64,000 bases of DNA, taken from the NCBI RefSeq assembly GCF_054482525.1, contig NZ_CM137006.1; one strand, 5' to 3'. The position numbers are program-made. Below are positions 35,001 to 38,000 of the stretch, piece by piece (position 1 is the first letter of the stretch; each line of letters begins with the position of its first letter).

Positions 35001-38000
35001 ATACCGATTACGTGAGTAATGAATCAGGGACGCTTTCGCGATTATTTAAACTACCTCAGCATGGGACCACCGTCCGCACAGAATTGATTGCGGGGATGAC
35101 CACTTTTTTAACCATGGTGTACATCGTTTTTGTGAATCCGCAAATCCTCGGCGCGGCACAAATGGACCCGAAAGTGGTGTTTGTTACCACCTGTTTGATT
35201 GCCGGTATCGGCAGTATTGCGATGGGGATATTTGCTAACTTACCCGTGGCGCTGGCTCCGGCAATGGGGCTGAACGCCTTCTTTGCGTTCGTGGTCGTGG
35301 GGGCGATGGGTATCTCCTGGCAGACCGGGATGGGCGCGATATTCTGGGGCGCAATTGGGCTATTTTTGCTCACGCTATTTCGTATCCGGTACTGGATGAT
35401 CTCCAACATTCCATTAAGTTTACGTATTGGTATCACCAGCGGAATCGGATTATTTATCGCCTTAATGGGATTAAAAAATACTGGCGTTATTGTCGCCAAT
35501 AAAGACACCCTGGTGATGATTGGCGATTTAAGTTCTCACGGCGTGTTGTTAGGTATTTTAGGGTTTTTTATTATAACCGTGTTGTCATCACGTCATTTTC
35601 ATGCCGCGGTGCTTGTTTCTATTGTGGTGACGTCTTGCTGTGGCTTATTTTTCGGTGATGTTCATTTTAGCGGCATCTATTCCATTCCGCCTGATATTAG
35701 CGGCGTCATTGGTGAAGTAGATTTGAGCGGCGCGTTAACACTTGAACTCGCCGGTATCATTTTCTCCTTTATGCTGATCAACCTATTTGATTCATCAGGA
35801 ACATTAATTGGTGTAACTGATAAAGCTGGCTTAATAGATAGTAACGGTAAATTCCCCAATATGAATAAGGCGCTGTATGTTGATAGCGTCAGTTCGGTGG
35901 CGGGTGCGTTTATCGGCACCTCGTCTGTTACCGCCTATATTGAAAGTACTTCTGGTGTGGTGGTCGCACGGGGCTGACGGCTGTCGTGGTCGGCGTTATG
36001 TTCCTGTTAGTTATGTTCTTCTCACCGCTGGTGGCGATGGTTCCTCCTTACGCAACCGCCGGAGCGTTAATCTTTGTTGGCGTGCTGATGACTTCGAGCC
36101 TGGCGCGCGTTAACTGGGATGATTTTACCGAATCGGTGCCCGCATTTATTACCACGGTGATGATGCCCTTTACTTTCTCGATCACCGAAGGGATTGCACT
36201 CGGCTTTATGTCGTACTGCATCATGAAAGTGTGCACCGGGCGCTGGCGCGATCTGAACCTGTGTGTGGTGGTGGTCGCAGCTCTGTTTGCACTGAAGATT
36301 ATTCTGGTGGATTAGTAACTGGCGAGGGTTTCCAGATATCATGAGTTCTGATTACGCAGGAGAACTCATGATCTGGATAATGCTCGCCACGCTGGCGGTA
36401 GTGTTTGTGGTTGGTTTTCGGGTGCTGACATCCGGGGCCAGAAAAGCGATTCGCCGTCTCAGCGATCGGCTGAATATCGATGTCGTACCCGTGGAGTCGA
36501 TGGTCGATCAAATGGGAAAGTCAGCCGGTGACGAATTTTTACGTTATTTGCATCGCCCGGATGAGTCGCACCTGCAAAATGCCGCGCAGGTATTGCTCAT
36601 CTGGCAAATTGTCATTGTCGATGGTAGCGAACAGAACCTGCTGCAATGGCATCGGATTTTACAAAAAGCCCGCCTTGCCGCTCCCATTACCGATGCTCAG
36701 GTCAGGCTGGCGCTGGGTTTTCTGCGCGAAACCGAACCTGAAATGCAGGATATTAATGCTTTTCAGATGCGCTATAACGCGTTCTTTCAGCCTGCCGAGG
36801 GCGTTCACTGGCTGCATTAAAACCGCTTCGTCTTATCAGCCTACAGACCGCGCCTGACCTGTAGGGTGGATAAGGCGTTCACGCCGCATCCGGTATCGGA
36901 ACTGACAGTAGGTGAACGCATTATCTACGTTCTATTTACAGCAGCACCTCCAGCCCGTGTTTTTGCACAATGCTGAGCAGTTTTAATGAAATGCCATTGG
37001 GGCGTTTAGCGCCACTTTCCCATTTTTGTACAGTTGAAACGCTGGTATTGAGATAGTGAGCGAAGACGGGCTGACTCACTTTTAATTTTTCCCGCAGTGC
37101 TTTTATCTCAACAGGTTGTAAGTCTTGCACGCTGGTCAGGCAGGCTTTGTCAAAAGTACGCATCGTTTCGGCAGAAATAGCATCGACGCTGGACAATCCA
37201 GCCGCTGCGCTGTGAATAGCCTCAAATGCAGGACTTTTAAATTTAGTTTTTGCAGTCATAGCAGATCTCTGTCAGTTCTTTAGTGTTAATCATTGCTGTT
37301 AGTTGGGCTTTCGTCAGGAAGCCATAATGCTTTGCAATTTCACGAAACCCAGCCAGTTCCTGACTATTGATGTTCGACATATCCTGTTTTGCATATAAAA
37401 ACGTGTAAAACCAATTACTTCCCCCTTTCGCCAGAATAATTGCACGCTCACGATTTTGGTGAAGGCGCTTTTTAAAAACGCCACCGCCAAGTGCATCAGC
37501 TTTACCTTGTTCCGTTTCTAAAATGGCCCGGCACAACTCTTCATCTGTTATTGCATGAGACCTGGCTTCACTTGCAAACCATTTGGTTTTAAACACGCGC
37601 ATATCGTTGAGATCCTGTTATTAAAGTATATCACCAAGTGCAATACTTTATCCCTTGTTCCCAACACAATCGCGAAAATACATATCACCTTGCCCTATGA
37701 TTTTTATTTCTTCGAGCAGCCTCGAACTTTTCCCACAACACCGTAAAAGTTGCAAAAACGTTAAATGCGTCACACATTTCAATGTTAAAGTGGTCGGCTT
37801 TTCCCCTGAAACATGCCACGGGTAACACCATGAGTGAATTTATTGCCGAAAACCGCGGCGCGGATGCCATCACCCGACCGAACTGGTCAGCCGTTTTCTC
37901 GGTGGCGTTTTGCGTCGCCTGTCTGATTATCGTTGAGTTTTTGCCCGTCAGTTTGTTGACGCCAATGGCCCAGGATTTAGGCATTTCGGAAGGGGTTGCC

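Follow-up and report, generated by a model that had tools for sequence, protein, structure and literature searches.

The question raised by this locus is whether the adenine permease gene adeQ (yicO), which is divided between two reading frames in the assembly, has been lost by the organism itself or has been broken only on paper by indel-type sequencing errors. An earlier note on the same DNA had described the split, had pointed to nlpA as a second disrupted gene nearby, and had left gene decay and sequencing error standing side by side as explanations. The window, by which we mean the whole 64,000-nucleotide stretch of DNA that was analysed, is a segment of the E. coli chromosome running from dgoK through to selC and yicJ. 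Our analysis leads us to hold with high confidence that adeQ is here a true, vertically inherited pseudogene, that it arose through the loss of one unit of a repeated heptamer, recently and on a backbone like that of strain 19KM1776, and that its product would be inactive.

The adeQ locus and its lesion

Two plus-strand open reading frames lie at the flagged place, one ending at 35977 and the other occupying 35986-36315 in a different frame. Both match the Pfam family PF00860 (Xan_ur_permease), the N-terminal fragment over profile positions 3-303 and the C-terminal fragment over positions 318-387 of 389, and a search of NCBIfam assigned neither fragment to a family. The domain includes the TM10 IES...GGRTGLTA block, which in the window is divided between the two frames. 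A 1.5-kb adeQ query found matches in 5,404 of 5,426 complete E. coli genomes; the underlying feature is annotated adeQ among the matches listed, and the top matches to the 1501-base query span 1508 bases. The order of adeD (divergent), adeQ and yicN is conserved at the window locus, and over 1335 nt there are no substitutions relative to the adeQ genes of strains PCN033 and 19KM1776, the deletion aside. The identification of the gene as adeQ/yicO in the earlier note is thus upheld by the Pfam assignment, by synteny and by substitution-free alignment to annotated adeQ. The features at the locus are as follows.

33047..34813, minus strand: adeD (adenine deaminase), the divergent neighbour, intact and identical to the 19KM1776 copy.
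34988..35977, plus strand: adeQ 5' fragment of 329 codons, 324 native and 5 frameshifted, closed by TGA at 35975-35977; drawn from alignment, Pfam and an exact public product.
35954..35965, plus strand: deletion junction GGTGT/GGTGGTC, with GGCGGTC absent between 35958 and 35959; drawn from alignments to PCN033 and 19KM1776.
35959..36315, plus strand: adeQ 3' remnant in the -1 frame, 118 native codons (G327-D444) up to TAG at 36313-36315; drawn from translation, Pfam and alignment to AZG1.
36368..36820, plus strand: yicN (DUF1198), intact, 52 nt 3' of the adeQ stop, with one synonymous private SNP at 36580.

In pairwise alignment the sole difference between the window adeQ and those of PCN033 and 19KM1776 is one 7-bp deletion, GGCGGTC, at CDS nt 972-978. 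The intact allele reads GGTGT GGCGGTC GGTGGTC GCACG at this point, its two adjacent heptamers (CDS nt 972-985) matching at 6 of 7 positions, and the intact-allele sequence across the deletion site is GGCGGTCGGTGGTC. The surviving heptamer, GGTGGTC, occupies 35959-35965, and the 2 bases GG leave its exact partner, the deleted unit, ambiguous in placement. Translation from the true start, ATG 34988, meets a premature TGA after codon 329 of what should be an uninterrupted 444-codon frame; codons 325-329 read V-V-A-R-G, such that the truncated product ends in GVVVARG. The length of the indel is not a multiple of 3 and no second indel compensates for it. The 3' remnant retains the GGRTGLTA motif and four hydrophobic segments, and its earliest start codons are GTG 35986 and ATG 35998. 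The frameshift that had been placed near 35960-35985 is therefore real in the alignment to intact PCN033 adeQ, with the deletion falling at 35958/35959, and the fragment sizes given for it, about 330 and about 110 residues, were accurate for the 329-codon N-terminal fragment and the 118 native C-terminal codons in the -1 frame. The split is read directly from the sequence and is a deterministic rather than a statistical feature. Judged by its reading frames, the window locus is an adeQ pseudogene and not a functional member of the family.

Inherited mutation or sequencing error

A frameshift of this kind could in principle reside in the data, with the organism carrying an intact gene and the 7-bp gap being an error at a site that is difficult to sequence. 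The stretch of about 35 nt at adeQ nt ~958-993 does coincide with contig ends or N-runs in hundreds of short-read drafts: a 319-aa adeQ partial that runs out at a contig end accounts for 71 blocks and a 113-aa partial that begins at one for 138 blocks, and N-runs occupy the same spot in two of the contigs that we read (L004 and L009). Such frequent breaks and N-masking of short-read assemblies at precisely this point raise the prior for artefacts at adeQ. On the same side stands the absence of the deletion from the complete E. coli genomes, mostly long-read: it occurs in 0 of 5,392, the best identity being 93.5% (100/107 bases). For the contig breaks in ST131 drafts we considered an IS insertion and rejected it, since the 100-bp stretch is in one piece in the 5,392 complete genomes. 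Folded as single-stranded DNA, the intact heptamer region shows no unusual hairpin (z = -1.04), and secondary structure therefore explains neither instability nor the assembly breaks.

The form and distribution of the deletion nevertheless make such an error extremely unlikely. Seven bases are lost from GGCGGTC/GGTGGTC, which is neither a homopolymer nor a single-base event and would be atypical of platform errors. A comparison of window positions 1-61846 with 19KM1776, its nearest relative among complete genomes, gives 8 SNPs (5 synonymous, 3 missense, 0 nonsense), the 7-bp deletion and one 1-bp indel; at the latter, at 54089, the window carries an intact 376-aa ORF that is split in 19KM1776. 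Since the only other indel leaves the window intact, the window is not indel-prone: scattered indels are absent from this comparison with a near-identical genome, and no further window-specific indel occurs in 61.8 kb. Complete genomes with identical local sequence (PCN033, 19KM1776, SCU-102 and others) carry intact adeQ, which indicates that such an error is not dictated by the sequence itself.

The deletion is also found elsewhere, and on one backbone only. The exact 329-aa truncated product is encoded on 31 contigs (47 index blocks) across NCBI, ENA and Logan assemblies, and the gene neighbourhood is the same in all 24 of the 24 contigs read that encode it. At the DNA level the window's 7-bp deletion is carried by L007, L015, L016 and L017, so that the identical change appears across pipelines and projects that include an ENA metagenome. 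We aligned the last three, a scaffold from an infant-gut metagenome and the assemblies of two SRA runs, at single-base resolution; they carry the 19KM1776 alleles at the window-private SNP sites 32244 and 36580, and at 39524 where it is covered, and two further SNPs are private to L016. Because these contigs share the deletion and not the private SNPs, the deletion predates those differences and was inherited. Of the two explanations raised in the earlier note, real mutation is the one that stands, the deletion recurring in many independent assemblies, and sequencing error is set aside. The deleted junction was also sought among JGI metagenome contigs, with both observed alleles permitted, and no copy was returned. 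The deletion-bearing SRA runs are SRR11478762 and SRR29421599.

The closest relatives place the event in time. Strain 19KM1776 was isolated from a dog in Switzerland, PCN033 from a pig in China and SCU-102 from a human, and PCN033 has been described as O11, group D (PMC4578781). Beside the deletion, the 12-21 kb compared in deletion-bearing contigs held no SNP that separates them from 19KM1776, and the monophyly of the deletion carriers consequently rests on the deletion alone. The second disrupted gene that had been reported within 25 kb is confirmed, and lies about 22 kb away.

58150..58967, plus strand: nlpA pseudogene, with a 1-bp deletion (the T of AAAGTTGGC) at CDS nt 108, window position 58257, called relative to K-12 and strain XDL.

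This nlpA deletion is common to exactly 3 of 5,354 complete genomes, namely PCN033, SCU-102 and 19KM1776, in the last of which the gene is labelled 'frameshifted' by PGAP. As three independently sequenced complete genomes share it, the nlpA lesion is likewise a real mutation and is older than the adeQ lesion. The two are nested, the earlier loss of nlpA marking a small phylogroup-D-type lineage and the later loss of adeQ a sub-clade of it. The adeQ deletion arose very recently on a 19KM1776-like backbone, within a small lineage that was already nlpA-minus, and is carried by a sub-clade that has been sampled many times. Pseudogene counts published for two strains are 88 against 4923 genes for PCN033 and 123 against 4,586 for PCN061 (PMC4578781). 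The window holds two among ~55 genes, which is near the usual E. coli background of ~2-3% and thus gives no sign of accelerated genome decay.

Origin and recurrence of the deletion

Deletions between short direct repeats arise by slipped-strand mispairing, as established in the classical lacI deletion studies. The adeQ deletion resembles these events in three respects: exactly one adjacent repeat unit is gone, the breakpoints show 2-3 nt of microhomology, and a second lineage has suffered a loss at this repeat as well. One unit of the imperfect tandem heptamer GGCGGTC/GGTGGTC was most likely lost through such mispairing during replication, and since the repeat has only two units that match imperfectly (6/7), the rate of slippage should be low. 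The recurrence is provided by L011, which has a 97%-identical backbone with heptamers GGCTGTC/GGTGGTC and has undergone a separate 7-bp loss at the heptamer in which the first unit was kept. Its backbone and breakpoints differ from those of the window, and the event is therefore independent; two independent heptamer deletions are a genuine recurrence.

The sequence created by the deletion also admits a different source, in which the change was templated, copied from an ectopic repeat rather than produced by local slippage. The junction GTGGTGGTCGCA (35957-35968) is identical to a 12-mer lying 311 nt downstream within adeQ (36268-36279), and this 12-nt exact direct repeat (family D5 in the repeat search) exists in the deleted allele only. 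Against such copying, slippage between adjacent units matching at 6 of 7 positions is the simpler event, and the independent deletion in L011 retains GGCTGTC and has no match to the ectopic 12-mer. We give templated copying a very slim chance, and retain heptamer slippage as the origin of the window allele.

Loss of adeQ by other routes is already documented in the species. In the O157:H7 strain 7409 and the pig strain NJS001 the gene has a 1-bp deletion at nt 903 and is called 'frameshifted' by PGAP. The corresponding 1334-bp adeQ span occurs in 4 of 60 evenly sampled complete genomes, including two further records beyond these two strains, and the nt 903 lesion is probably common to a few hundred complete genomes. 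In the same sample about 6 of 60 genomes have a shortened, interrupted or truncated adeQ, namely the four with the 1334-bp span, a single genome with an IS1 insertion and another with a 14% match. Strain 18AR0845 carries an IS1 insertion at adeQ nt 932-940, other drafts carry 1-bp deletions at nt 985 and 990, and in one draft nt ~86-972 are inverted between 13-nt inverted repeats, with a breakpoint at nt 973-988. The EDL933 protein Z5153 (109 aa) falls in the same protein cluster as the adeQ C-terminal fragment. The window allele is like the 7409/NJS001 pseudogene in that both lesions are small deletions falling within one and the same third of the gene, and each leaves an N-terminal fragment and a C-terminal fragment of ~105-109 aa with adeD and yicN retained; it differs in that their lesion is 1 bp at CDS nt 903, lies 69 nt further upstream, sits on another backbone and arose independently. 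A literature search for adeQ/yicO frameshifts or pseudogenes returned mostly irrelevant matches and no description of the 7-bp allele. Disruption of adeQ is thus already on record, and the case in the window is an ordinary lineage-specific pseudogene of a known kind.

As an observation in its own right, two independent 7-bp deletions and several other adeQ lesions lie within ~20 nt of one another. The clustering of lesions was examined as evidence for a hotspot and downgraded, being largely an ascertainment effect of the look-up with the C-terminal fragment.

Whether adeQ loss has been selected, with the gene a recurrent target of inactivation and the heptamer a mutational hotspot that supplies knock-outs, is a related question. 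Several independent adeQ lesions, among them the second 7-bp deletion at the heptamer in L011, would fit such a history. We consider it unlikely, however, in that a look-up with the exact 105-aa C-terminal fragment, which brought up the lesions near nt 972-990, favours lesions just upstream of that fragment; the 7-bp deletion is rare, being seen in 0 of 5,392 complete genomes; the literature search showed no association with a phenotype or niche; and the paralogue PurP is redundant, such that relaxed selection suffices.

A stronger form of this idea would treat the heptamer as a switch. Like phase-variable contingency loci, adeQ is turned off by a repeat-mediated frameshift, and duplicating GGTGGTC in tandem, a gain of 7 bp, would in principle bring back the frame with the substitution A325V. 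Unlike such loci, adeQ is without a long repeat tract, the intact allele having two imperfect units, and no mixture of ON and OFF states is seen among close relatives beyond one clade; across three deletion-bearing contigs and 5,392 complete genomes the site has two states only, of which the deleted state is rare. The adeQ heptamer is not a contingency locus. The adenine deaminase gene beside adeQ is silenced by H-NS. It is very unlikely that the heptamer is a true hotspot at which natural E. coli repeatedly lose the permease, with that loss favoured in some niche and perhaps reversible by 7-bp duplication, which would make the site a crude on/off switch for adenine uptake beside adeD.

Predicted consequences for the permease and for adenine uptake

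The intact counterpart of the window allele, AdeQ of K-12 and of PCN033/19KM1776 (WP_001513042.1), is an adenine permease from the NCS2/NAT family, in which it belongs to the AzgA-like branch, and is encoded at the same locus and matching the same PF00860 profile. Apart from the deletion the window allele is 100% nucleotide-identical to that of PCN033/19KM1776, and it specifies 324 native residues rather than 444, with the GGRTG motif and TM11-14 missing. AzgA-like transporters have 14 TMS, of which TMS1-4 and 8-11 form the core and TMS5-7 and 12-14 the gate, and a Glu of TMS10 contacts the substrate (PMC11527162). Intact AdeQ aligns to the plant AZG1 structure 8irl across YIESTSGVAVGGRTGLTAVV, and in the solved AZG1 structures the counterpart of the deleted and frameshifted stretch is the conserved IES..GGRTGLTA block. 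The 7-bp loss takes out codons 325-326 and shifts the frame, and the reading ends after 5 aberrant residues. The predicted 329-aa product would keep the substrate-binding IES motif of TM10 and would lack the invariant GGRTGLTA, TM11 and the gate helices TM12-14. With the GGRTG motif and the four subsequent hydrophobic segments lost, the truncated product should be inactive as a transporter, and homology to these proteins thus predicts a loss of transport activity.

Function might be rescued if the two frames were still joined or if their products assembled, either through -1 ribosomal frameshifting or through half-permeases in which the C-terminal half restarts at GTG 35986 or ATG 35998. The premature stop at 35975-35977 precedes these two in-frame starts by only 9 and 21 nt, such that termination-reinitiation is conceivable, and C-terminal fragments of 105 and 109 aa are predicted by gene callers. 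By inspection, however, 35940-35977 holds no slippery heptamer of the form X XXY YYZ, and the frameshift is not conserved among orthologues, its occurrence in 0 of 5,392 complete genomes being unlike that of a conserved recoding site. No good Shine-Dalgarno sequence stands at the correct spacing for the C-terminal starts, and consensus scans for promoters and terminators returned weak matches only and no credible signal for independent expression of the C-terminal fragment. A two-piece permease would also miss residues 325 to ~335, including the GGRTG that is invariant as far as plant AZG1, and comparable adeQ alleles are labelled 'frameshifted' pseudogenes by PGAP. Rescue by recoding or by assembly of fragments has next to no probability on this evidence, and the locus is best read as a pseudogene with a truncated, probably inactive product.

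The passages of PMC11527162 and PMC10976475 that cite Papakostas, Botou & Frillingos (2013, J Biol Chem 288:36827) name YicO and PurP as the two adenine transporters of K-12. Adenine uptake would then depend on the paralogue AdeP/PurP, which is encoded outside the window. In K-12, deletion of yicO had no effect of its own on sensitivity to purine analogues, and the weak HAP effect of one yicO allele vanished with the Keio allele (PMC3809563). As deletion has no effect of its own in K-12, a mild or conditional phenotype is expected.

The locus is best annotated as a frameshifted adeQ pseudogene, and its lesion is not an error to be 'corrected'. Between them, the nlpA and adeQ lesions offer a handy nested pair of markers, nlpA for the phylogroup-D-type lineage and adeQ for the sub-clade inside it. 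By itself the adeQ deletion raises no new question; it adds one more case of the repeated loss of adeQ, as in O157:H7 and elsewhere, in a strain that probably takes up adenine via AdeP/PurP alone.

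Assembly breaks and independent lesions in adeQ

Contig ends or runs of N fall precisely at approximately 35945-35985 in the window (adeQ CDS nt ~958-993) in hundreds of short-read drafts of E. coli, many of which are third-party assemblies of ST131. The adenine permease is represented in protein collections by partials, a 319-aa N-terminal partial in 71 index blocks and a 113-aa C-terminal partial in 138. An IS insertion is ruled out as the cause, since complete genomes are contiguous across this region, and the breaks probably reflect sequencing dropout at a G-rich stretch of GGC/GGT motifs. 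A strong hairpin was sought at the break region and was not found (z = -1.04).

Other assemblies show different adeQ lesions. In one draft contig (L013, positions 1-1322; GCA_001621415.1, LVSC01000113.1) adeQ nt ~86-972 is inverted, with both junctions held on the same contig and the breakpoints falling within a pair of inverted 13-nt repeats, one near nt 75-88 (GACCACCGTCCGC) and the other at the heptamer site (GCGGTCGGTGGTC); this could be either a chimeric assembly or a genuine inversion. O157:H7 strain 7409 (L025) and pig strain NJS001 (L026) share a 1-bp deletion at CDS nt 903, which is why their adeQ is annotated as frameshifted, and in an even sample of 60 complete genomes the same 1334-bp adeQ span occurs in 4. 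Strain 18AR0845 (L027) carries an IS1 inside the gene at nt 932-940.

The ilvN-uhpA and yicN-nepI intervals

Two intergenic intervals hold additional coding sequence:

24716-27770: a 435-aa and a 510-aa ORF between ilvN and uhpA
36936-37602, minus strand: RelE/ParE-family toxin (119 aa) and HTH antitoxin (107 aa) between yicN and nepI

The only annotation of the 435- and 510-aa ORFs in 19KM1776 is as hypothetical proteins, and no Pfam match is recorded for either in L015-L017 (an infant-gut metagenome scaffold and two SRA-run assemblies). The toxin-antitoxin pair is found in the window's backbone and some others, and is missing from several loci in which nepI directly follows yicN (L005, L009-L012).

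A perfect 12-nt inverted repeat lies at 36338-36372 (ATCATGAGTTCT and AGAACTCATGAT, with an 11-nt loop). Because no T-run follows it, an intrinsic terminator is ruled out; the repeat overlaps the annotated yicN start codon (36368) and might occlude initiation of yicN translation.

The iatC adhesin and the type III secretion-related cluster

Beyond nepI the window contains the following features:

39216-50333: iatC, a giant inverse autotransporter adhesin gene (3705 aa)
50383-57345, minus strand: selC-linked type III secretion-related cluster adjoining iatC
53676-54806, minus strand: intact 376-aa ORF within the type III secretion effector/translocon cluster

Within iatC, an array of ~291-nt repeats (Big_1 domains), roughly 84% identical to one another, spans about 42650-48190. 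The sole differences between metagenome scaffold L015 and the window are a SNP cluster inside this array (43907-44013), which probably arises from repeat mis-assembly. The neighboring cluster encodes the HilA-family regulator eilA, an IpaD/SipD-like tip protein, an SctE translocon subunit and a SycD/LcrH chaperone, and the island is missing from backbones in which yicS directly follows nepI (L005, L009-L011). The 376-aa ORF contains the only other indel relative to 19KM1776, at 54089 (window sequence TTGTTCTTTTTTT), where 19KM1776 is one base shorter and its annotation divides the gene into two hypothetical proteins, which may reflect either a real lesion or an error in 19KM1776.

The selC boundary and the nlpA lesion

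The distal part of the window comprises:

58150-58967: nlpA pseudogene, lesion at 58257
61826-61920, minus strand: tRNA-SeC (selC)
62156-63595: uncharacterised 479-aa ORF beyond selC

Colinearity with 19KM1776 stops 20 nt into the selC 3' end because a P4-like island (primase-helicase, DUF5375) occupies that site in 19KM1776. The interval from setC to selC holds a rhuM remnant. The nlpA gene is disrupted by the loss of a single base at CDS nt 108. Among 5,354 complete genomes of E. coli this lesion occurs in exactly three (PCN033, SCU-102 and 19KM1776), and it therefore marks a small lineage that includes the window's strain.
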